Shown piece after piece: positions 4,386-31,409 of a stretch of DNA of 32,151 nucleotides. Source of the stretch: a virus. How positions within the stretch are numbered: the first letter of the stretch is position 1; every line of letters begins with the position of its first letter. Under the pieces are notes generated by a model. That model had not been told where the DNA came from. It saw only the letters and a program-made list of their open reading frames with translations, and searched no databases. The stretch lies in IMG/VR virus record IMGVR_UViG_3300029387_000010; one strand, given 5' to 3'. A program made the translations under genes and the position numbers.

Positions 4386-4725
4386 AGAGATCCGCACTGT
4401 GACAGGGTTTGAAAAAAACACGACATGGCATCGAAGTGTCATCCTTGCCACGGTAAAAGCATTGAACATTTTGAAGGTTCCCTGTTCGGTTGAGGTCTAC
4501 ACGACATCCAATTTCGTGACGAACACGCTGAATTCGGGAAATGTAGAGAAGTGGAAACGTGCAGAGTGGCGCAAGTCCTCTGGAAAAGAGGTCAAAAACA
4601 AAGAATTATGGCAAGAATATGCCGATTTGGCAGAGCGTCACAAAATCCATGCCACACGCAGTAAAAATAACGAATATGTACGCTTACTTATGAAAATGTT
4701 CAAAGAAGATGCAGAAAGTAAATAG
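4282..4725 (+). CDS. RNase HI-fold protein lacking the catalytic DEDD residues
   Basis: AAGGAG lies 5 nt upstream of the start. VQIYVTTT...GNYGAVVEY...TTWHRSVILATVKAL...VEVYTTSNFV...KWKRAEWRKSSGKEVKNKELWQ parallels RNase HI (IFTDGS...GYG...TNNRMEL.A...STDSQYV...W...GW......VKN.DLW). Confidence 0.75.
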   Translation: MMKVQIYVTTTLAGPAVKDGNYGAVVEYITPKGHKEIRTVTGFEKNTTWHRSVILATVKALNILKVPCSVEVYTTSNFVTNTLNSGNVEKWKRAEWRKSSGKEVKNKELWQEYADLAERHKIHATRSKNNEYVRLLMKMFKEDAESK

Positions 4726-4766
4726 CAAAACGGCAGGGAAATGCCGATAATCCTTAAAAATACAGA

Positions 4767-6556: not shown

Positions 6557-6624
6557 GTTTAGATGTTTTTAAGAATTATGAATGTGATGGTCAGATAGAG
6601 ATATCCGACTTGAAAGGAGAAGAG

Positions 6625-12532: not shown

Positions 12533-12802
12533 GTGGGCAGAATTAAGAAAATGTCTACGGTGACAACGTCAGGATCACGACTGGAACAGTTGAAGAATCT
12601 GTCGAAAGTCCTGGCGAAACAAATAGATGATTGCAATAATGACATGATTATTGGTCCGAAGTACCTCCCACAGCTTTCAAAACAATACAGAGAGACGATC
12701 AAAGAGATTGAAGAGATTGAGGGAGTTGACAGAGAAGATGACGAAATCGGTGAAATCCTCTCAGCAAGGAAAGCTGATGGGAAGCCAGACGCCGTCCGTT
12801 AG
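12533..12802 (+). CDS. terS: Terminase small subunit
   Basis: Small helical protein (RLEQLKNLSKVLAKQIDD...LSKQYRETIKEIEEIE) directly upstream of and overlapping TerL. GTG 12533 follows AAAGGTGG. Confidence 0.65.
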   Translation: MGRIKKMSTVTTSGSRLEQLKNLSKVLAKQIDDCNNDMIIGPKYLPQLSKQYRETIKEIEEIEGVDREDDEIGEILSARKADGKPDAVR

Positions 12803-15604: not shown

Positions 15605-16529
15605 CGAGACGGCAGCTGATCTGATGCAGAAGTGGGTGCAGAAAAACGGATTCGGCAATGATAAAGCCCTATTGGATTACGCATTTGCACTTTCGCAGCA
15701 TTACGGACAGGCAATCGGAGCGTTGTCTTGTCAGATGTATGAGGCTACAGCGGCGGCGCAGGGTGCCGTAATTCCGACGGCTGAAATGGCAGAACTTCCA
15801 GAGTATGGAGAGGTGGCTAAAGCTATACACGGCACGATGAAGCAGTCACAGAACAATGTACCGGCGACAATTGCCAGACTGATAAAGCAGGTTGGGGCAG
15901 ATACGACATTGAAGAATGCCGGGAGAGATGGAGCGGAATTCGCCTGGGTACCACATGGAGACACTTGTGCTTTCTGTATTACACTTGCGTCCAGAGGGTG
16001 GCAGCGCATGTCAAAGCAAGCATTGAAAAAAGGGCATGCCGAGCACATACATGCACATTGCGATTGCGAATATGCTGTAAGGTTTGATGGAAAAAGCTCG
16101 GTGGCTGGATATGATCCAGAAAAATATGAGAGAATATATTACAATATGCCTGGAAAAAATTCACAAGACAAAATAAATTCTCTTAGGAGATTAATCAGCG
16201 GAAAGAATCCGTTGACATTGGATCAGGTGGAATTTATCATTGAATTAGAAGGAAATCCTGAGATTTTAGGTGGAAGGTCACCTCGACAATGGAAGAATTA
16301 CCTGGAATTTTTAGGGTTTGAGACAAAGCCACTTGGAGCAGGAAGCTTAAGAGGAATAAAATTCGAAGATGGTGGAGGCTATAGGATTAACTATAGAGGA
16401 GATGGGTATTTGCAGTATCATCCGGAAGGTAGACACCACAAAGTAGCATATTATAAAGTTTCGAACGCCAGAAATGGAACAAAGCGTTTTGACACGGAAG
16501 GAGTAGAGTTGGATGAAAGCAAACGTTGA
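15549..16529 (+). CDS. MuF/SPP1 gp7-like head morphogenesis protein with an extra C-terminal domain of about 110 aa
   Basis: FAWVPHGDTCAFCITLASRGWQ...HAHCDCEY is the MuF-type Cys/His signature. Residues from about 215 to 326 (...YLQYHPEGRHHKVAYYKVSNARNGTKRFD...) lie beyond the core. Confidence 0.8.
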   Translation: MKISTKAWVAYIKKMSQISETAADLMQKWVQKNGFGNDKALLDYAFALSQHYGQAIGALSCQMYEATAAAQGAVIPTAEMAELPEYGEVAKAIHGTMKQSQNNVPATIARLIKQVGADTTLKNAGRDGAEFAWVPHGDTCAFCITLASRGWQRMSKQALKKGHAEHIHAHCDCEYAVRFDGKSSVAGYDPEKYERIYYNMPGKNSQDKINSLRRLISGKNPLTLDQVEFIIELEGNPEILGGRSPRQWKNYLEFLGFETKPLGAGSLRGIKFEDGGGYRINYRGDGYLQYHPEGRHHKVAYYKVSNARNGTKRFDTEGVELDESKR

Positions 16530-16791
16530 AGCGATGAAAAATAAAATTGAAAAAAGAATTGCTGAAGAGAAAAAGCCTACGCTTGTAGAAAATAGAGTTT
16601 GTTTCAAAACAGTATCCGGAGGCTTTTTGAGGTTAGATGAAATATTTGGTGACAGTATAGTTATCGAATTTGCTGAAAACATGAGAGAAGCGAAAAACAA
16701 TAGGTTTGAAGATGGAGACATTTTCTTGCTGAAAGAATACAGTGAAGATGAGCTTGTTAACATTATTACGGAGGCTATTGAGACATATTAA
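16513..16791 (+). CDS. Small acidic hypothetical protein (candidate immunity partner of the MuF C-terminal domain)
   Basis: 92 aa. Overlaps the MuF gene end by 17 nt (translational coupling) and is followed by a terminator. Confidence 0.6.
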   Translation: MKANVEAMKNKIEKRIAEEKKPTLVENRVCFKTVSGGFLRLDEIFGDSIVIEFAENMREAKNNRFEDGDIFLLKEYSEDELVNIITEAIETY

Positions 16792-16822
16792 CCACTGATC
16801 AGAAATGGTTGGTGGTATTTTT
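16791..16822 (+). terminator. Intrinsic terminator-like hairpin plus T-run
   Basis: ACCACTGATC (16791-16800) pairs with GGTTGGTGGT (16807-16816), giving 10 bp including 3 G:U pairs. The loop is AGAAAT, followed by ATTTTTA. Confidence 0.5.
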
Positions 16823-16850
16823 ATACCTATTTTTCGGGAGGTGATGGAAC

Positions 16851-16919
16851 ATGGCTACATCAACAATGAATATTTTGATCATTTGTATTGCGGTATTTGC
16901 TATATGCAAATTCACATAG
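16851..16919 (+). CDS. Possible 22-aa hydrophobic peptide MATSTMNILIICIAVFAICKFT
   Basis: ATG 16851 lies 7 nt after GGGAGGTG (16836-16843), with stop TAG 16917-16919. It sits in an otherwise non-coding 230-nt gap. Confidence 0.3.
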   Translation: MATSTMNILIICIAVFAICKFT

Positions 16920-17024
16920 CAATTAAATGCAGATAATTTTAGCACGCAGAGATGCGTGTTATTTTTATGGCAACGCATGCCTTAAATGCGGTAACTATAA
17001 GCACTCAATCAGGAGGGAAACAAA

Positions 17025-17471
17025 ATGGCAGACGATAAAACATTTACTCAGGCTGAAGTGGATTCAATCATCGAGGGACGCCTCGCAAGAGAACATGAAA
17101 AATACGCAGACTATGACAGCTTGAAGGACAAGGCTGGTAAGTATGATGAGATGCAGGCAAAGGGAAAGACAGATCTTGAGAAAGAAAAAGAGAAGTCCAG
17201 CTCTTTGGAGGCTGAACTCAACAAGCTTAAAAAAGCTGACACTGTGAGACAGGCAAGAGAAAAAGTAGCAAAAGACACTAGCGTACCGGTGGAATTACTG
17301 ACAGGTGAGGATGAAGAAACCTGCAAGAAACAGGCAGAAGCAATTATGAAATTTGCGAAGCCGAAGAGCTATCCGGGAACTAGGGGAAACAGGGGACGTG
17401 CGACAGAACATCATGAAAAGGATGATGCAATGAGAGAATTTGCACGTCAGATTTTTGGTAAAGGAGAATAA
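17025..17471 (+). CDS. Capsid scaffolding protein
   Basis: MADDKTFTQAEVDSIIEGRLAREHEKY..., followed by a Lys/Glu-rich coiled coil. It is directly upstream of the major capsid gene (DUF4355-like pattern). Confidence 0.85.
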   Translation: MADDKTFTQAEVDSIIEGRLAREHEKYADYDSLKDKAGKYDEMQAKGKTDLEKEKEKSSSLEAELNKLKKADTVRQAREKVAKDTSVPVELLTGEDEETCKKQAEAIMKFAKPKSYPGTRGNRGRATEHHEKDDAMREFARQIFGKGE

Positions 17472-17476
17472 AGAGT

Positions 17477-18370
17477 ATGGCAGCATTAATTACATCAGAT
17501 TTTGAAATCCCGGCAGAGATTTCAACAGGAATTTTTGAAAAAGCGCAGAAGGGCTCGACCCTGGCGCAGCTGTCTGGGGCAAGACCTCAGAAGTTTGGCA
17601 AACAGCAGGTATTTGTACTGACTGCACCGCCAAAAGCGGAATTGGTAGGAGAAGCGGCACAGAAGTCACCAACGCCGGCGTCTTACTCATCAAAAACGGT
17701 TAATCCGTTCAAATTGCAGGTGACAATGAGATTTTCACAGGAAGTGCAGTGGGCAGATGAGGATACACAGATTGGAGTATTACAGGATCTGGCATCCAAT
17801 GCAGGTATTGCGCTTGGAAGAGCATTGGATCTCGTAGGTATTCATAAGATCAATCCGTTGACTGGCACAGTATCAGAACTTGTTAAAGAAGGTCTGATTG
17901 ATACAAAACAGTTAATTACACTTGTGGGTACAAAGTACGACGAAGCGGTAGAAGCAGCAGCGGGAACTGTAATCTCAGCCGGTTATACACCGACAGGAAT
18001 TGCAATGGATCCGGCGCTTTCGTTCGGACTGTCTACCATGAGAGATACAACTGGAAGAAAAATCTATCCAGAGCTTGGATTCGGGCAGAACATTACCAAC
18101 TTTGCAGGAATGAATGCAGCTGTTTCTGATACAGTATCAGCAAAGAATGAGATTAGCGTTGCATCTAAACTACTTGGGATCACAGGACAGTTTGATGCGT
18201 TCCGTTGGGGTGTGCAGAGATCCATTGGAGCACACCTAATTGAATATGGTGATCCGGACGGACTTGGAGACCTCCAGAGGAGCAACCAGGTTGCAATCCG
18301 TGCAGAGATTGTATACGGAATTGGAATCATGGACAGCAACGCATTTGCGAAAATTGTGAGTGGTGAATAG
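17477..18370 (+). CDS. Major capsid protein (HK97 fold)
   Basis: 297 aa, position after the scaffold, and a C-terminal pattern ...FDAFRWGVQRSIGAHLIEYGDPDG...AIRAEIVYGIGI typical of Firmicutes-phage major capsid proteins. Confidence 0.9.
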   Translation: MAALITSDFEIPAEISTGIFEKAQKGSTLAQLSGARPQKFGKQQVFVLTAPPKAELVGEAAQKSPTPASYSSKTVNPFKLQVTMRFSQEVQWADEDTQIGVLQDLASNAGIALGRALDLVGIHKINPLTGTVSELVKEGLIDTKQLITLVGTKYDEAVEAAAGTVISAGYTPTGIAMDPALSFGLSTMRDTTGRKIYPELGFGQNITNFAGMNAAVSDTVSAKNEISVASKLLGITGQFDAFRWGVQRSIGAHLIEYGDPDGLGDLQRSNQVAIRAEIVYGIGIMDSNAFAKIVSGE

Positions 18371-19792: not shown

Positions 19793-20350
19793 ATGTCAGA
19801 CGTGAAAAATGTAAGTGCTGCACAGCCGAAGGTTGGTGGCGCTATATTCCGGGCACCGGTAGGGACCGAACTTCCGACCGATGCTACAACTGAATTAAAT
19901 GCAGCATTTAAAGCGCTGGGTTATTGTTCAGAAGATGGAGTTACAAATTCGAATTCACCAGAGACAGACAACACGAAAGCGTGGGGTGGAGATGTGGTGC
20001 TGAATCTACAGACTAGCAAAGAGGACAGCTTTAAATTTAAACTGATTGAAGTGCTGAATGTGGACGTGCTAAAGGCGGTGTATGGAGACGAAAATGTGAC
20101 TGGTGATCTAGAAAGTGGGATTGTTATCAAGGCGAATAACAAGGAAGCAGAAGCGTGCGCATGGGTCATTGATATGATTCTAAAAGGAGCAGTGAAGAGA
20201 ATTGTAATCCCGTCTGCTTCAATTACAGAGGTTTCAGAAATTAACTATAAGGCAGAGGCCGTTGGATACGAAACGACAATCAAGGCGACTCCGGATGAAA
20301 CAGGACAGACTCATTATGAATATATCAAGAAAAGTGGAGGAGAAAAATAA
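19793..20350 (+). CDS. Major tail (tube) protein
   Basis: 185 aa, AGGAGG RBS, and N-terminus ...[37 protein letters not shown] typical of phi13/TP901-like tube proteins. Confidence 0.85.
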
Positions 20351-20616: not shown

Positions 20617-20996
20617 TCCTCGCCCACATGATAAATACGGATGAAAATGCGTTGATCTGCGATCTGGCAGAAACGTATCACATCTATGATTATAAATCCC
20701 TACCATTGCACATGGTGGGGATTTTTGCATGTGGGTTGAGGCCTGATTCGAGAATCGGAATGAGGATATCTAACTCAAAGCTCACAACAGATCAGACAAT
20801 CCTCGCTCTAATCGCAGACAACACCAGAGCACTTGCTTGGTTGAACAGTGCGGATGGAGCAAAGGGGGTAAATAGACCAAAGTCTCTGATTGCGGCACTA
20901 CTTGATGGACAGACAGAAGAACGAGACATTGAAACATTTGAGTCCGGCCAGGACTTCGATGACGAGTGGAGACGACGGACAGGAGGTGATAAATAG
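20350..20996 (+). CDS. Tail assembly chaperone GT-like fusion product (via -1 frameshift at 20604-20610)
   Basis: The downstream frame is open from the slip site to TAG 20994-20996 and ends exactly at the tape measure start. This is the conserved G/GT arrangement of long-tailed phages. Confidence 0.65.
20604..20610 (+). other. -1 programmed ribosomal frameshift heptamer A_AAA_AAC
   Basis: Zero frame reads CCA AAA AAC TCA TGA. A -1 slip gives AAA AAA CTC ATG ATC..., which is the frame of ORF 20613..20996. Confidence 0.7.
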
Positions 20997-22864
20997 TGGC
21001 TACAGAACTTGCGAAAGCATATGTGCAGATTATTCCGTCTGCACAGGGAATCAGTGGAAAAATTCAGCAGGCAATAGACCCAGAGGCAGAACCGGCGGGG
21101 GCTTCGTTTGGAGGTAAATTAGTTGGAAAGTTAAAAGGGATTATTGCTACTGCAGCAATTGGAAAAGCGCTAGGATCAGCAATCAGTGAGGGAGCAAATC
21201 TTGAGCAAAGTCTTGGCGGAATTGAGACACTATTCAAGGATAGTGCTGACAAGGTTAAGGCGAATGCTGCGGAAGCCTATAGGACAGCCGGTATGAGCGC
21301 GAATGAGTACATGGAATTGACCACAAGTTTCTCCGCAAGCCTCCTATCAAGCTTAAGCAATGATACATCTAAGGCGGCAGATGTAGCAGATATGGCTATG
21401 ACCGATATGTCCGATAATGCCAATAAATTGGGAACCAACATGGAAGACATTAAGAACGCCTATCAGGGATTTGCGAAGCAAAATTACACGATGTTGGACA
21501 ACCTGAAGTTAGGTTATGGTGGTACCAAGACAGAGATGGAACGACTCCTTGCTGACGCTCAGAAAATCACTGGCGTGAAGTATGACATCAATAATTTGTC
21601 AGATGTGTATTCAGCAATCCATGTTATTCAGGGGCAGCTTGATATTACCGGAACAACTGCGAAGGAAGCGGCGACAACCTTAGCGGGATCGTTCGATTCC
21701 ATGAAGGCAGCAGCCAAGAATGTCATGGGAGAGATTGCGCTGGGAATGGATGTAAAACCGGCTTTGAATGCATTATCAGAGACGATTACTACATTTGTAG
21801 TGGGAAATCTTCTTCCGGCAGTATGGAATGTGCTATCAGCACTTCCGGGAGCACTTGTGAGCTTTATAGGAACTCTTATACCGCAGATTGTAACGGCATT
21901 GATGGAATTCGTACCGCAGGTGCAGGAACAAATTGTGGAAGCAGGACCACAATTCTATGAAATGGCAAGCAATATGATTAGTGGATTAAGCATCGGAATT
22001 CACACACAGCTCCCAAATTTGTTGCAGGATGGAGTCGAAATGCTTACAAATATCATAAACGGGATACTGCAGAATTTGCCGCAGCTTATAACGATGGGTG
22101 GAGAACTTATTATTCAGTTTTTGAATGCCATATTACCGGCATTACCGATGGTATTAGAAGCTGGCGCACAACTGTTGCTAAATATCGTAAATGGAATTAT
22201 CAATAATCTACCACAGATTGTCGTTGCAGTGGCGCAACTTATGATAAAATTTCGGGCAACAGTAGGTCAGCATCTACCACAGATTTTACAGACCGGAATT
22301 GAGATTATCGGAAAATTGGCAGCAGGACTCATCCGAGCAATACCGACACTGGTCGGAAAGATACCACAAATTATTACGGGAATAAAGTCGACGTTCTCGA
22401 ATGTCGATTGGGGATCGGTTGGTCATAATATTATCCGGGGAATCGCGAACGGACTTAAGAACGCAGGAAGCATGCTATGGGATGCGGTCAAAGGCGTTCT
22501 TGGAAGTTTCAAAGATAATGTGCTGTCATTCTTTGGAATTCGTTCTCCAGCACGCTGGGGCGTCTATGTAGGACGGATGATTGATGCAGGTTTCGCAAAA
22601 GGTGTTATCGGAGGTCTTCCAGCAGTGAATTCGGCAGTTGACCAGATACGTGCAGCAGCAATGAGCCCATTTGCGAACGCAAGCCTCAGCTATGACATGC
22701 AGGGGACAACAAACGTATCCAGAGATGCCGACCAGGAAACGGTTAATCGTCTGGATATTCTGATCGCGTTGTTACGAGCAATCCTAAATGGAAGAAACGA
22801 TGGAACATTTAGTGAGCGCGAGCTAGTCCGCGCACTGAGAGATATGGGGGTTGTATTTGCATGA
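20996..22864 (+). CDS. Tape measure protein
   Basis: 622 aa. GTG 20996 lies 7 nt after AGGAGGTG. Ala/Gly/Leu-rich helical protein with periodic LPQ(I/L) repeats in the C-terminal half. Confidence 0.92.
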   Translation: MATELAKAYVQIIPSAQGISGKIQQAIDPEAEPAGASFGGKLVGKLKGIIATAAIGKALGSAISEGANLEQSLGGIETLFKDSADKVKANAAEAYRTAGMSANEYMELTTSFSASLLSSLSNDTSKAADVADMAMTDMSDNANKLGTNMEDIKNAYQGFAKQNYTMLDNLKLGYGGTKTEMERLLADAQKITGVKYDINNLSDVYSAIHVIQGQLDITGTTAKEAATTLAGSFDSMKAAAKNVMGEIALGMDVKPALNALSETITTFVVGNLLPAVWNVLSALPGALVSFIGTLIPQIVTALMEFVPQVQEQIVEAGPQFYEMASNMISGLSIGIHTQLPNLLQDGVEMLTNIINGILQNLPQLITMGGELIIQFLNAILPALPMVLEAGAQLLLNIVNGIINNLPQIVVAVAQLMIKFRATVGQHLPQILQTGIEIIGKLAAGLIRAIPTLVGKIPQIITGIKSTFSNVDWGSVGHNIIRGIANGLKNAGSMLWDAVKGVLGSFKDNVLSFFGIRSPARWGVYVGRMIDAGFAKGVIGGLPAVNSAVDQIRAAAMSPFANASLSYDMQGTTNVSRDADQETVNRLDILIALLRAILNGRNDGTFSERELVRALRDMGVVFA

Positions 22865-23700
22865 TAGAAATCAAGTATGTATGCTCAAATGGAAAAGAGT
22901 ACAACCTGATCGGGGACCGGATGCGAGCGACATCCGGTTCTTTCCATGAGTATCAATGGAAGTCGATGACAACGGATCAGCAGATGGGTGTGGATGTTTA
23001 TGGATTTGAAAAAGAACCAAAAACATATCAGACCACGCTAACATTTCGTGGACCGCTGGAAGAGCGAAAAGCAAAGATGGACGAGCTGACCAATTGTTTT
23101 GAGTACGATGTTGTAAATCTCACTCCAGGACGAATATGGTTTGGAAGCTATTATATTGACTGCTATATTAATGAAATAACTACAGAAGTATCGTCTGTAA
23201 GAAATTGTTGGACGGATATGAAAGTTAGTGTTTATTGTCCATATCCGATGTGGACAATGGAGCAAACGAAAAGTTTTTATCCGGATGCGGCGGATAAAGG
23301 AGAACCTTACGAATATCTGGATTATCCGCATGATTATGCTTACGACTATTCGAAACCGTCATCCGGAACTGAACATTGGTATGTGGATCACTACAGAAGC
23401 AATAATTTCCGCATGACGATTTACGGACCGTGTGCGAATCCACGAATAATAATCAATGGACAAGTCTATCAGATTTACGACACACTGGAAGTGAATGAGT
23501 ATATTGTAATTGATTCGAGAAAAAAGACGATTATTAAGAGGCTTGCGAATGGAACGGAGCAAAATATCTTTTACAAGAAATCAGCAGGAAATTCAGTGTT
23601 TACGGAAATCCCTTCGGGCGATCTTTTGGTGAGCTGGAGCGGAGCATTTGGGTTTGATATTACGATATTCAAAGAAAGGAGCGTACCGAAGTGGATCTGA
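22861..23700 (+). CDS. Distal tail protein (Dit)
   Basis: 279 aa, ATGA overlap with the tape measure stop, canonical position. Confidence 0.75.
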   Translation: MIEIKYVCSNGKEYNLIGDRMRATSGSFHEYQWKSMTTDQQMGVDVYGFEKEPKTYQTTLTFRGPLEERKAKMDELTNCFEYDVVNLTPGRIWFGSYYIDCYINEITTEVSSVRNCWTDMKVSVYCPYPMWTMEQTKSFYPDAADKGEPYEYLDYPHDYAYDYSKPSSGTEHWYVDHYRSNNFRMTIYGPCANPRIIINGQVYQIYDTLEVNEYIVIDSRKKTIIKRLANGTEQNIFYKKSAGNSVFTEIPSGDLLVSWSGAFGFDITIFKERSVPKWI

Positions 23701-24698
23701 TAAAGACAAATCCGTATGGCATACAATTGGGGTATATCCGGAACGCTAACATAGATTTTGAAATAGGAGCAGATGAAAAGGACAGCATCAATGATTTTGA
23801 GATCGAACTGAAGCGTTGGAACTGGGATGGATCCATCGGATACGGAGCCAGGGTATTTTCGCCAGATACGGAATATGGTGGAATTGTTCGGGAAATCAGT
23901 ACAGACACATCGGCGAATATCATCCGTGCAAAGGGTGACACCTGGCGAGGCATGATGACCAAAAAAATCATACAGCCGTCGAGCGGGCAGGATTACGCTG
24001 TAGTGTCAGGGGAGCTTAATTCGATCATTAAAGCAAAGGTTGAAGCTGAGTTTCCAAGGCTATTTTACGGCGTCGAAACAGATACCGGTGTTAACGTGAC
24101 GAATTATCAGTTTGATAGATACTGTACGCTCCATAGCGGATTGACCAAGATGCTCAAATCTGTAGGATATCGTTTAGACATTAGATATCAGGAAGGCGAT
24201 GTCGGAATGCCCGGATATGTAAGGGTGAGAGCAGTTCCGATTAATGACCTGTCATCAGAGTACGAATTCACGAACGATAACAATATGAATTTCACAACCG
24301 ATGACAATCGACGCGGAATCAATCATCTAATCTGCCTGGGAAAGGGAGACCTAAAAGACAGGATAGTTGTCCACCTATACGTTGATCAGAACGGAGAAAT
24401 TTCGCAGACACAGCAGCATTTTACGGGTAGCGAAGAAATTGCAGCTATATACGATAGCAGCGGATCAGAAAAAAATGATTTGATCAAAAATGGAATCAAG
24501 GAGCTGGAGTCGAAAAAATCCAGTATGTCATACAACATGACTATGACAAAGCTGGAAGGGAATATCGATATAGGAGATATCGTAGGTGGAAGAGACTACC
24601 TGACGGGCATAAGCATGAAAAAGCCGATTGGCAGGAAGATTTGGACAATATCTTCTGGGAAAGAAAAGGTTGAATATAAATTGGAGGGTGATAATTAA
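23691..24698 (+). CDS. Siphovirus Gp37-like baseplate/tail-tip protein
   Basis: N-terminus ...GYIRNANIDFEIGADEKDSINDFEIEL...GARVFSPDTEYGGIVREI matches the ReqiPepy6 Gp37-like pattern. GTG start follows AAGGAG. Confidence 0.7.
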   Translation: MDLIKTNPYGIQLGYIRNANIDFEIGADEKDSINDFEIELKRWNWDGSIGYGARVFSPDTEYGGIVREISTDTSANIIRAKGDTWRGMMTKKIIQPSSGQDYAVVSGELNSIIKAKVEAEFPRLFYGVETDTGVNVTNYQFDRYCTLHSGLTKMLKSVGYRLDIRYQEGDVGMPGYVRVRAVPINDLSSEYEFTNDNNMNFTTDDNRRGINHLICLGKGDLKDRIVVHLYVDQNGEISQTQQHFTGSEEIAAIYDSSGSEKNDLIKNGIKELESKKSSMSYNMTMTKLEGNIDIGDIVGGRDYLTGISMKKPIGRKIWTISSGKEKVEYKLEGDN

Positions 24699-25664
24699 AT
24701 GGAGATTATTACTGGATATGTAGGAAAGAAGCATGTGACATCGGAACAGGAAAGAGACGTCAATCAAGGCATTGTAGGCCCAGGATCTTACGTATTGAAG
24801 ACGGGCATGCAAATGGAAGCAGAAGTTTCTTCTAACAATGAAATTAAGATCAGAGATGGAGTGCTGATGCATCAGGGATGCGCTGCATCAATTAAAAAGA
24901 ATACTTACGATTCATTAACCATCATCAATGGTAGTCAGGGCATGAAACGTATTGACTTAATTGTTGCCAGATATGAAAAGAATCGAGACGACGAAACAGA
25001 AAGCCTTAATCTGGAAGTCATCCAGGGAACACCGGCAGAGTCCAATCCGGCAGTTCCGGAATATACAGAGGGAAGTATTCAAGCAGGAGATTACATTGCA
25101 GATATGCCGATGTATCAAGTGATTATCAATGGATTAAACATTACAGAGGTAAAGCGATTGTTTGAAGTTGAACCGGATATCGACACTTTGAAAAAAGAGC
25201 TTGCTGAATTAAATGGCAAGATCAATCATAATTCCAACAAGCACATTCTGATCGGCAAATGGAGCAGCGCATGGAATCTTTCCGATACTCCCAAAAATAT
25301 CGGATCTAAAAAAGCCGCGATTGATAACGAATACTACAAGACCACCACCGGAGCGGATTCTGCCGTGACCGTCAAAAAGTCTGGGTTGTACTACGTATCA
25401 ATGTATGCGCAGGGATCAGCTGCTTCCGGTGCATCGGCATCCATACAGGCACAGGTTGTAGCAAGTGCCACAGTAGTAGATGATGCATACGTCCTGTTTG
25501 GAGCTGGCTATTCCTATAATGGATTAAGTGCGAACATCAACATAGGGCGCGTAGTGTTCCTACAAGCTGGAACAGTGCTCACGCCACAGCTTAAGAAATC
25601 CTCGGCATCTGGAGCTGCGTCAACCGCAGGAAGCTCTTACATGGAGGTTGTGCATATTTATTAA
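24699..25664 (+). CDS. Tail fibre/receptor-binding protein: constant N-terminal part (to about 25222) fused to variable cassette c1 (25223..25664)
   Basis: GGAGGGTG RBS. The crossover site AATTAAATGGCAAGAT lies at 25207-25222 (codons E-LNGK-I). The C-terminal 138 aa are 85/138 identical to the inverted cassette at 27542..27958. Confidence 0.85.
   Translation: MEIITGYVGKKHVTSEQERDVNQGIVGPGSYVLKTGMQMEAEVSSNNEIKIRDGVLMHQGCAASIKKNTYDSLTIINGSQGMKRIDLIVARYEKNRDDETESLNLEVIQGTPAESNPAVPEYTEGSIQAGDYIADMPMYQVIINGLNITEVKRLFEVEPDIDTLKKELAELNGKINHNSNKHILIGKWSSAWNLSDTPKNIGSKKAAIDNEYYKTTTGADSAVTVKKSGLYYVSMYAQGSAASGASASIQAQVVASATVVDDAYVLFGAGYSYNGLSANINIGRVVFLQAGTVLTPQLKKSSASGAASTAGSSYMEVVHIY
25207..25222 (+). 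repeat. Shufflon crossover site D (inside the fibre gene)
   Basis: AATTAAATGGCAAGAT. The identical 16-mer is at 27151-27166 (direct) and 27981-27996 (inverted). A 13-mer is at 25962-25974 (inverted). Confidence 0.9.
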
Positions 25665-25966
25665 GATAAGGTTATAGCACCAGCCGGTGAATAGTAGAAC
25701 AGTCCTGTAATCCGAAAGCGTCCGTTGACATTCTTGTTGAATACAGCGTATAGATTCTCACCTTGCCAAGTTACGCCCTCAGCATGTAAAGAGTCAGCAT
25801 TTCCGTCTCCATTCATGATGACGGCTCCTGAATTTTGCGGAGTAGCATCTGTTATCCCAAACAACGAATTGATCTTTGCAATGGTGGTTATCAATGCACT
25901 GGAGGTACCAGATCCATACGGAGTCATCGTGAAAAAAATGAACCGAACATTGTTCGCATAATTGCC
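25661..25966 (-). CDS. Start-less alternative fibre C-terminus, cassette c2
   Basis: The minus-strand frame is open from the LNG codons of site A: LNG-NYANNVRFIFFTMTPYGSGTSS...YYSPAGAITLS. The track ORF 25661..25927 is its 3' part. Its stop overlaps the c1 stop in TTAA. Confidence 0.75.
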   Translation of the reverse strand, partial: GNYANNVRFIFFTMTPYGSGTSSALITTIAKINSLFGITDATPQNSGAVIMNGDGNADSLHAEGVTWQGENLYAVFNKNVNGRFRITGLFYYSPAGAITLS

Positions 25967-25977
25967 ATTTAATTAAG
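25962..25977 (-). repeat. Shufflon crossover site A (inverted relative to D)
   Basis: TTGCCATTTAATTAAG is the reverse complement of CTTAATTAAATGGCAA. It shares 13 bp with D and 16 bp with B and C. Confidence 0.9.
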
Positions 25978-26027
25978 TAAGCGGATGACAATATGCTACA
26001 CTCAAATCAAAAAAAGGAGTGTGGCGA

Positions 26028-27014
26028 ATGGAGCAAAAGATCATGGAGGTAATGCGGCGGATGCAGGACATATTGTCAGAAGAACAGCTTCGAGAACTGC
26101 AGTCAGCTCTCAGAGTTACGTTTGATGGATGTGAGCTGCAATCAACGAATGAACTGATGGTGATGGATGATAGTTGGCAAGGGGATCTGGAAGATTTTCT
26201 GATGTCAAAAGCACTGGAAGGAAAGAGCAAGGCGACAATCATCCGGTATCGGTACGAGCTGGAAAGATTGCTATCGTACATCAATAAGGCAGTGGTCGAT
26301 ATTACAGACGCTGATATATCGAATTATATGAGGGCATACAAGAGAATTCGGAACATTAAAAACAGCACTCTTAAAGGTGTGCGGTCGATATATAGCAGCT
26401 TCTTTTCGTGGCTGCGTGATCGAGACCGGATCCGAAAGAATCCGATGGTGTTGGTGGAAGACATTAAGGTTCCAATCAGGGTGAGAGAGCCGTTCACGGA
26501 TGCGGAGCGAGAGAAACTTCTGAGAGAATGCCGGACGCTTCGGGATAAGGCTATAATGGAATTTCTATATTCCACAGCTGTCAGAGTTGGAGAATTGGTA
26601 AAGCTGAACCGGGGCGACATCAGATTTTCCGCAAAGGATCTGATTGTATGTGGTAAGGGCGACAAGGAACGAGTTGTTTATTTGAATGAACGTACTCACA
26701 TGTACCTGTTGGAATATCTGGAGAGTCGAACAGATACGAATCCAGCACTGTTCGTGTCGCTCAGATCACCGCATGAAAGACTGTCCGACAAAGGTGTAGA
26801 AGATATTGTACGTAGGACCGGAAGAAGAGTTGGCGTGAAAGCGTACCCGCATAAGTTCCGAGGTACATCAATTACCAATGCTCTCAATAGAGGAATGCCA
26901 TTGCAGGAAGCATCCTGTATGGCAGGTCATGTCAAATCAGACACAACATTAAGGTATGCTCAGTTGGATCAGGATTCAGTGAGATACCATCACAAGAAAT
27001 ATTTAAGTGCATAA
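26028..27014 (+). CDS. Tyrosine site-specific recombinase (XerC/D-integrase family), putative shufflon invertase
   Basis: Catalytic set in order: R (STAVRVGEL), K (GKGDKER), H-x-x-R (PHKFRGT), H (AGHVKSD), Y (TLRYAQ). ATG 26028 lies 8 nt after AAGGAG. The track start at 26019 is GTG. Confidence 0.9.
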   Translation: MEQKIMEVMRRMQDILSEEQLRELQSALRVTFDGCELQSTNELMVMDDSWQGDLEDFLMSKALEGKSKATIIRYRYELERLLSYINKAVVDITDADISNYMRAYKRIRNIKNSTLKGVRSIYSSFFSWLRDRDRIRKNPMVLVEDIKVPIRVREPFTDAEREKLLRECRTLRDKAIMEFLYSTAVRVGELVKLNRGDIRFSAKDLIVCGKGDKERVVYLNERTHMYLLEYLESRTDTNPALFVSLRSPHERLSDKGVEDIVRRTGRRVGVKAYPHKFRGTSITNALNRGMPLQEASCMAGHVKSDTTLRYAQLDQDSVRYHHKKYLSA

Positions 27015-27138
27015 CATACAAAAAATAAATGAGGAAAGGAGACTCCCCTTTAATCTCCGTGTTGTCGATACATCCGGCTAATGGTCGGGTGCTTTTGTTA
27101 TGCGCTTTTATATAGTAACTATTAACTTTAGATTCAAA

Positions 27139-27167
27139 GGAGTGGTTCTTAATTAAATGGCAAGATA
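27139..27167 (+). repeat. Shufflon site B: left arm of a perfect 29-bp inverted repeat
   Basis: GGAGTGGTTCTTAATTAAATGGCAAGATA is the exact reverse complement of 27980-28008. Confidence 0.95.
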
Positions 27168-27545
27168 CCGTTCTCGACCGTTCTGTACGATAACACTTCC
27201 GGAACAAAAACTGATGCCACATTGTCCGATAATGTAACGAACTACGAATACGTTGAAATATTCTATGGCAACGACCTAAATGATAATGATGCTTATGTGC
27301 CTATGCGTTCGATAAAAACGATACTGAAAGATGGATATGCAAGGGCGCGTTTACTATGGTTTGGCTCGACATCTGATTCTGCGAATCACCAGTTTTCCAG
27401 ATTGGCATTAGAATTACATGATAATACTATACATTTTGGTTCTGAGAATTTTGTTAATTTTTCATCGACCGCTGGGAGCGTCAAATGGAGCAACGCATCG
27501 ACGAAACATTTTAAAATATTTCGGGTAATTGGCTGGAAACATTAA
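27153..27545 (+). CDS. Start-less alternative fibre C-terminus, cassette c3
   Basis: The frame is open from TTA AAT GGC (27153): LNGKIPFSTVLYDNTSGTKTDATLSDNVTNYEY...VIGWKH. An in-frame TAA lies immediately upstream (27150-27152). The track ORF 27222.. starts at a TTG. Confidence 0.75.
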   Translation, partial: LNGKIPFSTVLYDNTSGTKTDATLSDNVTNYEYVEIFYGNDLNDNDAYVPMRSIKTILKDGYARARLLWFGSTSDSANHQFSRLALELHDNTIHFGSENFVNFSSTAGSVKWSNASTKHFKIFRVIGWKH

Positions 27546-27988
27546 GCAAGTTTTACAACTTCCATATACGAACTACCAGTTGTTGCAGATGCACCTGACG
27601 TATCAGATTTTCTTATTTGCGGTGAAAGAACAGTACCATTTTCAAGGCAGATAATTCGACTCATATTCACGTTCACGGAAAAACCATTATACGAATACTG
27701 AGAGCCGAAAAGCACGTAGTTATCATCAATGATCGTTCTATCTGCAATGACTTGCGCTTGAATACATGCTGATGCACCTTGGTTTGCGGCACCTTGTGCA
27801 TACATAGTCACACAGTATAAACCTGATTGCTTTATGGTTACGGTCGCATTTGCACCAGTTGTGGTTTTGTAACAATCATCATTAACAATTGGTTTGCTAG
27901 AGCCGATATTTTTTGCGGTTGTGGACAAGCTCCACGAGCTTCCCCACTTTCCGATCAATACATTATTTTTGCGATTATTTATCTTGCC
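27542..27988 (-). CDS. Start-less alternative fibre C-terminus, cassette c4 (homologue of c1)
   Basis: The minus frame is open from the LNG codons of site C: LNGKINNRKNNVLIGKWGSSWSLSTTAKNIG...SSYMEVVKLA. The only start is a TTG. Its stop overlaps the c3 stop in TTAA. Confidence 0.8.
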   Translation of the reverse strand, partial: GKINNRKNNVLIGKWGSSWSLSTTAKNIGSSKPIVNDDCYKTTTGANATVTIKQSGLYCVTMYAQGAANQGASACIQAQVIADRTIIDDNYVLFGSQYSYNGFSVNVNMSRIICLENGTVLSPQIRKSDTSGASATTGSSYMEVVKLA

Positions 27989-28008
27989 ATTTAATTAAGA
28001 ACCACTCC
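27980..28008 (-). repeat. Shufflon site C: right arm of the 29-bp inverted repeat
   Basis: TATCTTGCCATTTAATTAAGAACCACTCC. Its reverse complement equals 27139-27167. Confidence 0.95.
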
Positions 28009-28021
28009 GGAAAGGAGTGAT

Positions 28022-28393
28022 ATGAAACTCATATTTAATGATGCCACTGAACTGGTGGTCCAGTCTGCGGACATCCAATCAGATGGAGGACTTCTGATCA
28101 AGACGATCTCGGCGTCAGAGGAAGACTTGAAAACCATGTTCCAGGATCAGACAAAAACCAAGAAGATGGTTGTGAAAGAGCGTGAGTCCACACTTAGCGA
28201 ATATGAGAATTACACCAACATGGATGCCATTGTGAAGTACACAGCCGGCATTACTGGCGTGATTCTTTATAAGGTTGGTGAGACGCCGGCAGAAAAGATA
28301 GAAGCTCTTACGGCAGAGAATGCTGAGCTGAAAAAGGCTGTTGACATGCTCCAGGGGTGCATCCTTGAAATGTCCGAGCTGGTATATCAGTAA
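28022..28393 (+). CDS. Hypothetical tail-module protein (C-terminal LEMSELVYQ motif)
   Basis: AAAGGAGTG RBS. 123 aa. The C-terminal coiled segment is shared with 30471..30809. Confidence 0.65.
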   Translation: MKLIFNDATELVVQSADIQSDGGLLIKTISASEEDLKTMFQDQTKTKKMVVKERESTLSEYENYTNMDAIVKYTAGITGVILYKVGETPAEKIEALTAENAELKKAVDMLQGCILEMSELVYQ

Positions 28394-28449
28394 TGGTAAC
28401 TTTATTGACAAATTTATTCATATTATTACAAAATTCAGGAGGTAAAGAA

Positions 28450-28587
28450 ATGATGGCAATGTTATGGGCACAGCAGATTATGTTAGGAAAGAAGACTTAC
28501 GCACAGGTACCGAGACTCTTAAAGGATAAGGTGAAAGAGATCCTCGTCGATTCCGGAATGGAAGAACTTGTGACAGAGGAGCAGTAG
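28450..28587 (+). CDS. XkdX/CD1375-like small protein
   Basis: MMAMLWAQQIMLGKKTYAQVPRLLKDKVKEILVDSGMEELV matches the small-protein pattern ...I..GK.T...VP..L...V...L found after fibre genes in Firmicutes prophages. GGAGG lies 7 nt upstream. Confidence 0.6.
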   Translation: MMAMLWAQQIMLGKKTYAQVPRLLKDKVKEILVDSGMEELVTEEQ

Positions 28588-28588
28588 T

Positions 28589-29638
28589 ATGGACAATATC
28601 GTATCTGTAAAATTAGATTCCAGATACGCATCCACGCTGGGGGTATGGCAGTATGATTACGGTCAGGTGCTCCGGATCACAGGTCCGGAGCTTCCACCGG
28701 CAGTGGAAGTGCAGTTTTCGCTGGACGAGAAATCAGGAGAGACATTATCCAGAGTCGGCACGACGGTGGATGGAGTTACAGAGGTAAAGATTCCGGATGA
28801 GTTACTGGCGCACAGTGCGACCAGTGATTACCGGATCTATGCTTATATCTATCTGACAGATGAGACTTCCGGGAACACCAAGTATGAAATTACAATCCCG
28901 GTTAGAGTGCGAAGTAAGCCAACCTCTCCAACGGAAGATCCAGAGACGGATCCGGATCTATTTAGGAAGACGGTATCAGCGGTCAATGCATCCGCTGATC
29001 GTGCTGAGAATGCTGCAAGCTCTGCACGGGAAAGCGCGGAAGAAGCCAAAAAGTATGCCGAAGGCAAACAAGAAGATATAAAAAAGGCTGTATCTGATTA
29101 TATGAAAGAGAATCCTGTTAGTGCATCGGGAAAGCTGTCCGATTTACAGGAAGACGCTACACACCGTACTGTAACGGACACAGAGAAAGAGTCATGGAAC
29201 AGCAAGAGTGACTTTTCTGGGTCTTACAACGATTTAGAGGACAAGCCAACAATCCCCACAGTTCCAACCACCCTCCCAAACCCACAAGCACTAACCATTA
29301 CCTACGGCAACCAAACTCACACCTACGATGGCAGTGAAGCCCTTGCAATCACAATCGAGACAGGTGGCATCGAAAGAATAGAAAAGCTGTCTACAGACAC
29401 TACAGTTACATTAGAGCCTAACAAGCTCTATATCTTTCCAGAGATGTCAAGTCTTGCATACACCATCGGAGTGGGAACAGGAGAGGTGCATTTTATCTTT
29501 AAGAGCGGTGCGACAGCTACAAGGGTAGTACATCCAACCAACGTCAATATCGGTAGCTTTACGGTCGATGCGAACAAGATATATGAGGTATCTATATTAG
29601 AGGGGCTGTTGACTAGCCAGAATTGGAGTGTGAGCTGA
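28589..29638 (+). CDS. BppU-like baseplate upper/second fibre protein
   Basis: The N-terminal domain ...LDSRYASTLGVWQYDYGQVLRITGPELPPAVEVQF...VKIPDELL...YRIYAYIYL matches the BppU_N pattern. It is followed by an Ala/Glu coiled coil and a distinct C-terminal domain. Confidence 0.7.
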   Translation: MDNIVSVKLDSRYASTLGVWQYDYGQVLRITGPELPPAVEVQFSLDEKSGETLSRVGTTVDGVTEVKIPDELLAHSATSDYRIYAYIYLTDETSGNTKYEITIPVRVRSKPTSPTEDPETDPDLFRKTVSAVNASADRAENAASSARESAEEAKKYAEGKQEDIKKAVSDYMKENPVSASGKLSDLQEDATHRTVTDTEKESWNSKSDFSGSYNDLEDKPTIPTVPTTLPNPQALTITYGNQTHTYDGSEALAITIETGGIERIEKLSTDTTVTLEPNKLYIFPEMSSLAYTIGVGTGEVHFIFKSGATATRVVHPTNVNIGSFTVDANKIYEVSILEGLLTSQNWSVS

Positions 29639-30099
29639 TGGAGCGACGAAGAATGATGCTTATGGATGGACAGGAGGTAGAAAATATGGGTTGGAAAGAA
29701 GTAAAAACAGTAGTTGCACAGAATGATGGTGATGCATTATATGTAGACGGATTTGAAGCGGAAAGAATTAGAGTGACAGCGATGCTTGCGACCGTAACAG
29801 ATAATAAAGGACTTCGCTTTAACATTGCGAAAGATGCATATGAAAATTTCTTTAATATGGGAACAGCTGCTACAACAGAATTTAGACCGCTTCTATTTGA
29901 GCTTGGAGTTGTTGGGAATTATGCGATAAGCACAGCTTTTTGCTATCCCAAAGTTTCTGTTAGTACTAATGCACAAAATACAGTAGCAGGAGGAATGGAA
30001 TTACCAAATGGAGAAACACTTATAAAGCGACTCAGAATTAATTCAGCAAACGACAAATTAAAAGCAGGGTCTTGGTTGAGAATAGAAAAATGGGGATAG
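29638..30099 (+). CDS. Hypothetical protein (153 aa), tail-fibre module
   Basis: ATGA overlap with the previous stop. No family recognised. Confidence 0.6.
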   Translation: MERRRMMLMDGQEVENMGWKEVKTVVAQNDGDALYVDGFEAERIRVTAMLATVTDNKGLRFNIAKDAYENFFNMGTAATTEFRPLLFELGVVGNYAISTAFCYPKVSVSTNAQNTVAGGMELPNGETLIKRLRINSANDKLKAGSWLRIEKWG

Positions 30100-30134
30100 G
30101 AGTTGATACAAAAATGAACAATGCTAAAATGCTG

Positions 30135-30169
30135 ACAGCACAGCACAGCACAGCACAGCACAGCACAGC
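30135..30169. repeat. Pentanucleotide microsatellite (ACAGC)x7
   Basis: Seven perfect tandem copies counted directly. They lie between an ATG-initiated 19-codon ORF (30114..30173) and ORF 30182..30463. Confidence 0.97.
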
Positions 30170-30181
30170 TTAAGGCGTAGG

Positions 30182-30463
30182 TTGCTTGCAAGTGCGGTCA
30201 CAGAAAAAGACGATAACCTAATAGACCTAAACGCCTACAGCGAATCAGCCAATACATATGTACAGGACATTGCTATTGATAATGTAAAAACGTATTACGC
30301 ATATGATATTAGTTATATCGTCTGCTACAACAAATTTGGCAGTAATATGGGGTTAGCAACGATAGCGAGTGACGGAACGGTTGCCATGAAACCAGACACA
30401 ATAATGATAAGGGTAAATATTAGCAAAAACAAAAATCCGTATTTCGGATTAACAAAGAGGTGA
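30182..30463 (+). CDS. Hypothetical protein (93 aa), possibly phase-variable through the upstream repeat
   Basis: It has only a TTG start with a weak AAGG upstream. Its frame is open back through the repeat to 30128. Confidence 0.5.
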   Translation: MLASAVTEKDDNLIDLNAYSESANTYVQDIAIDNVKTYYAYDISYIVCYNKFGSNMGLATIASDGTVAMKPDTIMIRVNISKNKNPYFGLTKR

Positions 30464-30470
30464 TTAAAAA

Positions 30471-30809
30471 ATGCACGCAAAACTACAAAACGGATTTCTT
30501 CGAAGTGCACCCAAAACGATAACTTTGGATGGCAAGACTATCAACAATCCATTGCCGGAAGAACTGGAACAGCTAGGCTACAAGCCTGTGGTGTACACAG
30601 ATATGCCTACTGAGGTAACAGATGGTAAACACTGGGAATCGGAGTGGACGGAGGGAGAGACAGAGATTACGCAGGCGTGGAAGCTTGTGGAAGACACGGT
30701 CTATCCAGAGCCGGAACCGCTCCCAGAGGAAAGGATCACAAAACTGGAAGAACAGAGTCAGTTTCTCACAGAATGTCTTCTAGAGATGTCTGAGGCTGTA
30801 TATGAGTAG
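30471..30809 (+). CDS. Hypothetical protein (112 aa; C-terminal LEMSEAVYE motif)
   Basis: ATG follows AAGAGGTG. The C-terminal segment is paralogous to that of 28022..28393. Confidence 0.65.
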   Translation: MHAKLQNGFLRSAPKTITLDGKTINNPLPEELEQLGYKPVVYTDMPTEVTDGKHWESEWTEGETEITQAWKLVEDTVYPEPEPLPEERITKLEEQSQFLTECLLEMSEAVYE

Positions 30810-30833
30810 GGGTGACTATATGGAGATACGCGC

Positions 30834-30856
30834 AAGACCTTCGGGTCTTATTTTTG
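30834..30856 (+). terminator. Rho-independent terminator
   Basis: AAGACC (30834-30839), tetraloop TTCG, GGTCTT (30844-30849), then ATTTTTG. Confidence 0.75.
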
Positions 30857-30884
30857 TACGCAAAATTAAGAAAGGACGATTAAT

Positions 30885-31337
30885 ATGATGGAAAAGATTT
30901 TGTTTTTATTATCAAGTAACTCATTCATTCGGATTCTGCTGATTGCGGTGACATTGGACACGCTTCTGGGTGTTCTCCGGGCAATCAAGGAGCATAAATT
31001 CAATAGCTGCGTCGGCATCGATGGAGCAATTCGTAAGGCAGCTATGCTCTTCTCGGTATGCCTTTTAATGGCTACGGATGTGATCATGCATATTAATATA
31101 GTGGGCATGATTCCGGAGCAGTACATACAGGTCATTGGCATCCAGAAGCTTGGGATCTGTGAATTCTTCTGCCTGTTATTCATTTTATACGAAGCAGTCA
31201 GCATATTAAAGAACATGACGCTGTGCGGTCTCCCGGTGCCGAAAAAGATTAAGAGATGGGTACAGAAGTTTTTGGAGGACATGACAGAAGAACTTCCGGA
31301 AGACGCAGTGGAAGAATTAAAATCAGGGAGCGAGTAA
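30885..31337 (+). CDS. Holin (Phage_holin_4_1/TcdE-like)
   Basis: Multiple TM segments, the LDTLLGVLRAIKEHKFNS motif and YEAVSILKNMTLCGLPVP (compare NE..SI.EN....G.P), and an acidic C-terminal tail. It is directly upstream of the endolysin. Confidence 0.8.
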   Translation: MMEKILFLLSSNSFIRILLIAVTLDTLLGVLRAIKEHKFNSCVGIDGAIRKAAMLFSVCLLMATDVIMHINIVGMIPEQYIQVIGIQKLGICEFFCLLFILYEAVSILKNMTLCGLPVPKKIKRWVQKFLEDMTEELPEDAVEELKSGSE

Positions 31338-31409
31338 TCGCTTGCTTATAATGAAAATGATTGAGCATGGAGAGATCCGGGCTCTTTTTGCATGGAAAGG
31401 AGAAAAAAT

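Follow-up and report, generated by a model that had tools for sequence, protein, structure and literature searches.

Contingency loci built on simple sequence repeats (SSRs) are a textbook bacterial strategy. In the opa genes of Neisseria, CTCTT pentanucleotide coding repeats in the leader-peptide region bring about translational phase variation. The tropism of phage tail fibres can be switched by DNA inversion, as in Mu (Gin), P1 (Cin) and the shufflons, or by diversity-generating retroelements such as that of Bordetella phage BPP-1, and the lactococcal siphovirus TP901-1 possesses a baseplate in which a BppU adaptor is combined with the BppL receptor-binding protein. Repeat-based switching in phage genomes has been described for Campylobacter phages, whose receptor-binding protein genes carry hypermutable polyG tracts (Sorensen et al., 2021, Cell Rep 35:109214, cited in PMC12823448; PMC10877375). 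In T2 and T4, homopolymer runs of at least six bases have been reported as contingency loci, and the authors state that such loci were previously unreported in phages (Gomez, Barrick and Waters, 2025, bioRxiv, PMC12633550). Here, we analysed a 32,151-nt stretch of viral DNA (IMG/VR record IMGVR_UViG_3300029387_000010; in the following, the window), which is a segment of a siphovirus genome. It contains an (ACAGC)7 tract that links the ATG of a short leader open reading frame (ORF) to a small gene of the tail module, referred to as the cargo. Judged from sequence comparisons, this tract is very probably a slipped-strand ON/OFF switch in a temperate human-gut siphovirus, and the small tail-module gene it controls would encode a putative accessory adhesin.

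By analogy, the opa genes are the closest functional counterpart of this locus, but they do not belong to the same family. In both cases, a pentamer repeat is located in an N-terminal leader directly after the start codon and is in frame at every third copy number, and several paralogous genes per genome possess their own tract; the opa products are surface adhesins. Unlike opa, the locus belongs to a phage of a Gram-positive gut anaerobe and not to a bacterial outer-membrane family, it has ACAGC as its unit (AGTC or ACAG in relatives) and a leader other than a signal peptide, and its cassettes form a tandem array downstream of a fibre gene. The two share no sequence homology, and the absence of a Pfam hit of any kind, the other repeat unit and the other type of organism place the locus outside the Opa family. 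With the inversion and retroelement systems it shares a presumed stochastic and heritable alternation of host-recognition proteins. However, these systems depend on a recombinase or a reverse transcriptase and exchange or mutate C-terminal fibre segments, whereas here the translation of a separate small protein would be toggled. TP901-1 offers a further analogy, as small proteins of approximately 100-170 aa with a short N-terminal anchor and a beta-sandwich head follow an adaptor or fibre gene downstream of TMP-Dit-Tal (TMP, tape measure protein), but there is no sequence or significant fold match to BppL and the RRR motif described below is not a known BppL feature. The Campylobacter phages also use a phage-encoded SSR to toggle structural or host-recognition genes and to give rise to mixed progeny, but their tracts are homopolymeric G runs within the gene bodies of lytic myoviruses. 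Here, units of 4 or 5 nt are part of a dedicated, conserved leader cassette in temperate Lachnospiraceae siphoviruses, with up to three switches per array and two read-outs, namely fusion and coupling. The runs in T2 and T4 likewise point to polymerase slippage in phage genomes as a means of bet-hedging, but they are short mononucleotide runs (poly-A) across all gene classes, with mutants at approximately 1e-4 to 1e-3 in reads, and not long multi-nucleotide tracts at one gene family (PMC12633550). Full-text literature searches returned SSR switching in phages only as homopolymers (Campylobacter polyG, T2/T4 runs); no text describing leader cassettes of the tetra- or pentanucleotide kind in the tail modules of phages came up.

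The seven ACAGC units at 30135-30169 are all perfect and start 21 nt after the ATG at 30114. Tandem Repeats Finder (TRF) reports the tract with a period of 5, 7.0 copies, 100% matches and a score of 70, and no second array of more than 2.4 copies anywhere in the 32-kb window. A 20-nt (ACAGC)4 probe matches a single place in the window, this tract, and had matches in 0 of 100 dinucleotide-preserving shuffles. The leader starting at ATG 30114 encodes MNNAKMLTAQHSTAQHSTA and ends at TAA 30171-30173; its Shine-Dalgarno (SD) sequence, spacer and ATG are kept at the nucleotide level in relatives bearing different cargo genes. The ORF downstream of the repeat (30182-30463) comprises 93 codons when counted from a TTG, and its frame is open back to position 30128. 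No other frame remains open behind the repeat, the third being closed by TAG 30178-30180. When the region was rebuilt with 3-12 units, copy numbers of 3, 6, 9 and 12 resulted in fusion proteins of 109, 114, 119 and 124 aa, whereas all other copy numbers gave short peptides only, which terminate at the TAA with 4, 7 or 10 copies and at the TAG with 5, 8 or 11 copies. The window with its 7 copies is therefore in the OFF state. A preliminary description of this DNA had located the repeat in a 19-codon leader with an ATG and an AGGAG motif, and this is exact to the base, as are the coordinates it gave for the 93-codon TTG ORF and for the frame that is open through the repeat. Its prediction that 6 or 9 copies place the ATG in frame with the downstream ORF agrees with the rebuilt fusions of 114 and 119 aa, and a single open frame behind the repeat and a weak SD for the TTG (AAGG, 6 nt upstream) were also found; only the size of the fused product, estimated at about 110 aa, has to be corrected to 114 aa for 6 copies.

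Some genomes differ in the tract and in little else. The exact 93-aa protein of the window is present on 11 contigs, three of which have 0 mismatches to the window over 400 nt upstream and 600 nt downstream. This phage has 7 copies in two of the three assemblies (L061 and L064; SAMN05971706 and SAMN05971707) and 8 in the other (L065; SAMN05971708). Likewise, copy numbers differ between relatives with 1100 of 1100 identical flanking nucleotides, namely 8 in L001 versus 11 in L055 and 3 in L010 versus 4 in L042, and between pairs with one flanking mismatch each (11 copies in L013 versus 7 in L050; (ACAG)9 in L009 versus (ACAG)7 in L031). L001 and L055 also differ in a second repeat, with (GTCA)17 and (GTCA)9, respectively. 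From these comparisons, the tract appears to mutate much faster than its flanks.

To survey the alleles, relatives were gathered by scanning IMG/VR and a metagenome collection with the 22-mer of the junction between repeat and cargo, ACAGCACAGCTTAAGGCGTAGG, which yielded 25 and 34 loci, respectively; most of the metagenome records carry a human gut label. A leader (MNNAKML, MKSNKIL or MVNSKIL) followed by a repeat is present in these 59 pattern-scan loci, and further loci were obtained by protein look-up. The ACAGC tract spans 3-15 copies among relatives, with all values from 3 to 11 represented, and other relatives have different units at the same leader position, (AGTC)8-18 and (ACAG)7-12. 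After the ATG of each leader had been assigned by an SD-spacing rule and duplicates had been removed, 42 distinct loci remained, of which 28 are out of frame (OFF) and 14 in frame (ON). For tracts shorter than 55 nt, the 21 OFF and 13 ON alleles do not depart from a random one third (p=0.59). The in-frame alleles possess 3, 6, 9 or 15 copies, except for L053, which is in frame at 5 copies and whose tract begins with a variant unit, ATAGC; OFF alleles with 4, 5, 7, 8 and 10 copies were seen repeatedly in unrelated samples. We also noted that six independent contigs (L019, L033, L039, L045, L046 and L054) have their end exactly 55 nt, or 11 units, into the tract, as is typical of a repeat that exceeds the assembler k-mer, or of a heterogeneous repeat; true copy numbers above 11 are therefore probably common. 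In L052, a degenerate tract with point substitutions around position 900-955 (ACAGCACAGCACAGCACACCACATCACAGCACAGCACTGC...) is possibly a stabilised or 'locked' allele.

Proteins corresponding to the ON state occur in nature. A collection of 5.8 billion proteins returned 76 proteins when queried with the hypothetical 6-copy fusion. Many of them (P0001-P0008) are 114 aa long and start with MNNAKMLTAQHSTAQHSLRRRLL..., as expected for 6 copies, P0009 has 119 aa and three TAQHS units (9 copies), and several of 109-110 aa (P0012, P0044, P0047) have one TAQHS unit (3 copies). On the DNA level, ON alleles were confirmed with 6 copies in L067 and L068 and with 9 copies in L069. The remaining forms are 93-aa proteins (MLASAVTEKDD...), which are OFF alleles called from the TTG as in the window, and 99-aa proteins that start with MSRRR, MERRR or MLRRR and are encoded without any repeat. 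Since these repeat-free relatives and the paralogues in the array start with M-x-RRR, and the RRR codons of the window lie upstream of the TTG, we take TTG 30182 to be a fallback start of gene callers and not the natural N-terminus. The cargo ORF is intact in all loci with complete sequence, with the sole exception of L020, in which it is interrupted by an insertion sequence (IS). The ratio of nonsynonymous to synonymous substitution rates (dN/dS) in pairwise comparisons is 0.21 for the 13 sequences of cargo family A, to which the window belongs, and 0.24 for the 17 sequences of family B, the most frequent of the others; between OFF loci only, it is 0.18 and 0.24, respectively. The cargo is thus under purifying selection even between OFF loci. 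The intact ORF together with a dN/dS of 0.18-0.24 rules out a pseudogene, and an intact, constrained ORF fits a gene in intermittent use. As a separate observation, the element in L020 (12590-14000) belongs to the IS3 family, encodes a 98-aa OrfA-like protein and a 220-aa protein with an integrase core, and lies inside a cargo of family B, so that this allele is permanently disrupted.

One and the same combination of leader, SSR and TTAAGGCGTAGGTTG junction is found in front of no fewer than five unrelated cargo families (A, 97 aa; B, 124 aa; C, 122 aa; D, 128 aa; E, 152 aa). L001 and L055 share the backbone of the window but have other array genes and, in last position, cargo C in place of A, and the cassettes are therefore exchangeable. 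The cassette ends (...YGR*, containing GGGAGG) are likewise conserved. All sufficiently long relatives have the same gene order, in which the fibre gene is followed by zero to three small ORFs led by an ATG, the SSR-led gene as the last of the array and a homologue of the 112-aa gene found behind the array in the window. The shared N-terminal peptide reads M-x-RRR-(M/L); among 43 distinct array ORFs, 37 start with M-x-RRR, and five of the other six are SSR fusions in which RRR follows the leader. The arginine codons vary among cassettes while the residues stay the same, so the motif is conserved as protein; an internal SD at the RNA level, which was considered as another explanation for RRR, was rejected for this reason. 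According to hhalign, cargo A has no homology to the neighbouring array family beyond the N-terminal motif.

In 425 kb of related DNA, all SSRs with units of 4-6 nt and at least 4 copies sit at cassette leaders, at positions -20 to -85, about -620 or -1209 nt relative to the LRRR codons. A second tract is present in most loci, and in L016 there is also a third; these additional SSRs, (GTCA)5-17 and (ACAG)5-10, precede internal array genes approximately 620 nt (in L016 also 1209 nt) upstream of the LRRR codons and were found in L001, L002, L004, L007, L011, L013, L016, L028, L034, L055 and others, whereas the window contains none of them. The leader of the internal array genes (MKYRITHNLVSQSVSQ...) is not fused to the gene that follows. 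In one frame, its stop codon and the start codon of the M-x-RRR gene overlap (ATGTTAA or ATGA), and in the other two frames the stop lies 33-43 nt upstream of the ATG; 10 alleles are in the overlapping frame and 12 in the early-stop frames. This arrangement suggests that the tetranucleotide SSRs switch via translational coupling. The stop codon that shares bases with the ATG in the coupled tetranucleotide cassettes is present in the window too, as TAA 30171 within TTAAG, and the junctions read TTA AGG CGT AGG in the ACAGC type versus ATG TTA AGA CGG CGA in the coupled type. From this alignment, the ACAGC type looks like a derivative of the coupled type that has lost spacer and ATG and whose leader runs into codon 2.

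Based on these observations, we propose the following mechanism. Slipped-strand mispairing during replication would lead to the gain or loss of 5-nt units. At copy numbers divisible by 3, ribosomes from ATG 30114 would run through (TAQHS)n/3 into LRRRLL and the cargo (ON); at other copy numbers, they would meet a stop within 12 nt past the tract, at TAA 30171 or TAG 30178 (OFF). The switch would be heritable and is expected to be reversible, and by adding or withholding an accessory adhesin on the virion it would hedge the host range. In a prophage, the tract would drift as the host replicates and different lysogens would release different virions, while lytic growth would produce mixed progeny. 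Slipped-strand phase variation had already been suggested in the preliminary description, and the polymorphism in copy number, the existence of ON and OFF alleles and the intact, selected cargo support it; the comparison with related phage genomes that had been proposed there gave 3-15 copies, so the copy number is not invariant.

One might argue instead that the leader is a regulatory upstream ORF, that the product starts at TTG 30182 and that the repeat tunes reinitiation in the manner of a coupling switch or dimmer. Both OFF frames end just ahead of the TTG, the tetranucleotide cassettes of the relatives are clearly built in this way, and the TTG is chosen by gene callers in OFF alleles. 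However, a protein starting at the TTG would lack the RRR that is kept in all paralogues and repeat-free orthologues, and in the ACAGC type repeat sequence replaces the coupled ATG, with the in-frame state reading through. In addition, the in-frame alleles (3, 6, 9 and 15 copies) occur at near the random one third and are not avoided, and the SD of the TTG is weak. We consider this explanation unlikely. Even less probable is that leader and repeat mainly provide a homology patch for the recombination of cargo cassettes and that frame changes are a tolerated by-product. Such a patch requires neither a perfect repeat with a unit indivisible by 3 nor stops in both other frames, it leaves three different repeat units at one site unexplained, and the tract differs in otherwise identical genomes without any cassette exchange. 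What speaks for it is that it accounts for the mosaicism, that the same leader, SSR and junction precede the unrelated cargo families, that the cassette ends are conserved, and that L055 and L001 combine the window backbone with other array genes; the roles as patch and as switch are compatible and do not exclude each other.

A decaying pseudogene or an assembly artefact, in which the frameshift reflects damage or a miscounted repeat, is hardly credible. Long SSRs are miscounted by short-read assemblers, and on many contigs the tract is cut off by the contig end or has a length of exactly 55 nt, but a 35-nt tract is well within single reads, and the three independent assemblies of the same phage gave 7, 7 and 8 copies. 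Although the L020 cargo contains an IS3-family insertion and the tract of L052 is degenerate, the 30 OFF loci have an intact ORF in all cases of complete sequence, at the low dN/dS given above, and OFF alleles with 4, 5, 7, 8 and 10 copies recur in unrelated samples. Finally, in-frame alleles with 1, 2, 3 and 5 TAQHS units and a predicted disordered N-terminus would be in line with a repeat that merely forms a flexible linker, (TAQHS)n, of which only the in-frame length matters. With approximately two thirds of the natural alleles out of frame, tetranucleotide tracts at the same site encoding other peptides (VSQS, TDRQ) and no such linker in the repeat-free orthologues, the probability of this explanation is negligible.

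The preferred reading of the tract as an ON/OFF switch of an adhesin gene also involves a statement on the product. An AlphaFold2 model of cargo A (predicted local distance difference test, pLDDT, 78.5) has a disordered N-terminus of 12 residues, which includes RRR, and an all-beta remainder. The best neighbours in BFVD are beta-sandwich modules in phage Dit, neck-passage, tail-fibre and SGNH-hydrolase proteins, at a weak E>=5e-3 with TM scores of up to 0.66, and the best neighbour in the PDB is a tailspike, again weak with E=0.046; these beta-sandwich neighbours are modules of phage tail proteins that resemble carbohydrate-binding modules. The neighbouring 153-aa array protein is modelled as a jelly roll (pLDDT 80.8), with marginal matches to galectins, LNS domains and ERGIC-53 (E=1e-3 to 1e-2, TM 0.35-0.48). 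Its domain, at 60% identity, forms the C-terminal end of P0130, a 245-aa protein from a 1178-nt ENA contig with a fibre-like N-terminus (SAYQYAQEGGFTGT...), and can therefore be attached covalently to a shaft. The genes for TMP, Dit, the minor tail protein and the fibres precede the array and the holin gene follows it, which places the SSR-led gene within the distal tail module; the ATG of the 153-aa gene overlaps the fibre stop (TGATG), and the C-terminal half of the fibre (...SILEGLLTSQNWSVS) is kept upstream of every array, although relatives have collagen-like fibre genes at the position of the second fibre. Given where the array lies, how its first ATG overlaps the fibre stop, the constancy of the fibre C-terminus in front of it and the variety of lectin-like cargos, we lean slightly towards array products that act as accessory tail-tip adhesins, and the RRR peptide may dock them onto the conserved C-terminal domain of the fibre. 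A twin-arginine signal peptide was considered for SLRRRLLASAV and rejected, as its hydrophobic stretch has only about 6 residues and is followed by TEKDD.

Several points weigh against the switch or the adhesin role. Look-up by the exact 93-aa protein finds only OFF alleles, and this set is thus biased. Counts of exactly 11 copies (55 nt) are probably an assembler k-mer artefact or a lower bound and were treated as the latter, and several contigs break within the tract. The differences between assemblies could in principle have built up slowly, and a switching rate within a population is something we infer from the sequences. The OFF state may also be leaky, since TTG 30182, which has an AAGG 6 nt before it, follows the OFF-frame stops at distances of 8 nt and 1 nt, and reinitiation there might yield a truncated product without RRR at a low level. 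With regard to the product, fold searches with cargo A in BFVD and PDB gave no match at E<=1e-3, Pfam and PHROGs searches returned nothing usable for cargos A-E, the 153-aa neighbour or the 112-aa gene, and neither the fibre gene nor the 112-aa gene nor the cargo A profile matched a sequence in the PDB. Location on the virion and receptor binding are what we infer from weak lectin-like folds together with synteny.

The features of the window are listed in Table 1.

Table 1. Features of the window around the (ACAGC)7 tract and of its structural gene region (n, number of repeat copies).
Feature	Position	Strand	Remarks
Terminase, portal, protease, major head protein	12651-18370		
Major tail protein	19793-20350		
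Tape measure protein (TMP)	20996-22864		
Dit	22861-23700		
Minor tail protein	23691-24698		
Fibre-like gene with inversion module and tyrosine recombinase (26019-27014)	24699-25664		
Second fibre-like gene, 349 aa	28589..29638	+	phrog_16164; C-terminal half ends ...SILEGLLTSQNWSVS
153-aa array gene, MERRRMML...	29638..30099	+	paralogue by N-terminal motif only
Shine-Dalgarno AGGAG of the leader ORF	30098..30102	+	11-nt spacer to ATG 30114
SSR-led gene	30114-30463		
Leader ORF, present OFF state	30114..30173	+	MNNAKML(TAQHS)2TA, 19 codons plus TAA
(ACAGC)x7 SSR, probable slipped-strand switch	30135..30169	+	TRF, shuffles, copy-number variation in relatives
Cargo ORF, family A	30170..30463	+	LRRRLL motif plus 91-residue remainder; complete translation only at repeat number multiple of 3
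Two OFF-frame stops	30171..30180	+	TAA 30171-30173 (n=1 mod 3), TAG 30178-30180 (n=2 mod 3)
Conserved 112-aa gene after the SSR-led gene	30471..30809	+	synteny in all loci long enough
Holin, closes the tail module	30885..31337	+	phrog_199; PF05105 on the identical gene in L061

Upstream of the array, a multi-site, shufflon-like inversion switch acts on the first fibre gene (25199-28008), with its recombinase at 26019-27014 and inversion sites at 25204-25229, 25962-25982, 27139-27167 and 27980-28008. One segment (27222-27958), bounded by a 29-nt perfect inverted repeat, comprises a 107-aa ORF and, on the minus strand at 27542-27958, an alternative C-terminal cassette (phrog_25635 residues 183-319). 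Related TTAATTAAATGGCAAGAT sites are present inside the fibre gene and before the tyrosine recombinase. In L055, the N-terminus of the fibre is fused straight to the alternative C-terminal cassette, and both inversion states therefore exist in nature. The inversion switch that the preliminary description had mentioned as a neighbour of the repeat is thus found 2-5 kb upstream in the window. Two or three gated cassettes together with an inversion switch would allow many display combinations per phage lineage. We give an even chance to the broader view that temperate phages of gut Lachnospiraceae carry tandem, exchangeable, RRR-docked adhesin cassettes, up to three of them independently gated by SSRs through fusion or coupling, and that these form, with the fibre inversion switch, combinatorial, heritable and reversible virion states.

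As for the host, one relative (P0058/L060; 8 copies, OFF) lies at a prophage end with a tRNA-synthetase gene beside it; the contig belongs to a metagenome-assembled genome (MAG) of Blautia sp. The host is likely Blautia (Lachnospiraceae), as judged from this one named MAG. GTDB representative genomes contained neither an exact match to the 22-mer nor a relative of cargo A, and a blastn search ('distant') of GenBank phages with 28500-31400 gave no match.

Common human-gut phages possess long multi-nucleotide tracts in a dedicated leader cassette, which recur with five or more cargo domains and, within one genome, at as many as three positions. If the products are adhesins, the host range of these phages would in part be a stochastic trait of the population, and if the combinatorial view is true, they would possess a 'phasome' for host-range bet-hedging that is hidden in consensus assemblies. 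Consensus genomes mis-annotate the locus, as approximately two thirds of the alleles look like 93-aa proteins started at a TTG or like 'hypothetical' fragments. Repeat counts can be read from existing metagenomic reads, and the conserved 22-mer ACAGCACAGCTTAAGGCGTAGG can be used to mine further cases. This is of relevance for phage annotation, for strain-level phage dynamics and for the engineering of phages with locked receptor repertoires.

A few further genes of the window deserve mention. The 112-aa gene behind the SSR-led gene had no family match in Pfam, PHROGs and PDB sequence searches, and its product is possibly an assembly factor. Small genes follow both fibre modules, at 28022-28393 and 30471-30809, and share only a C-terminal motif, LEMSE-VY; they possibly encode paired assembly factors. 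A small CD1375-like protein (PF23792) is encoded at 28393-28587. In the replication and early region (3459-7989), genes for a rolling-circle-type replication initiator (3459-4385), a PAPS-reductase-like protein (5363-6556) and a ParB-like protein (6415-7989) are present.

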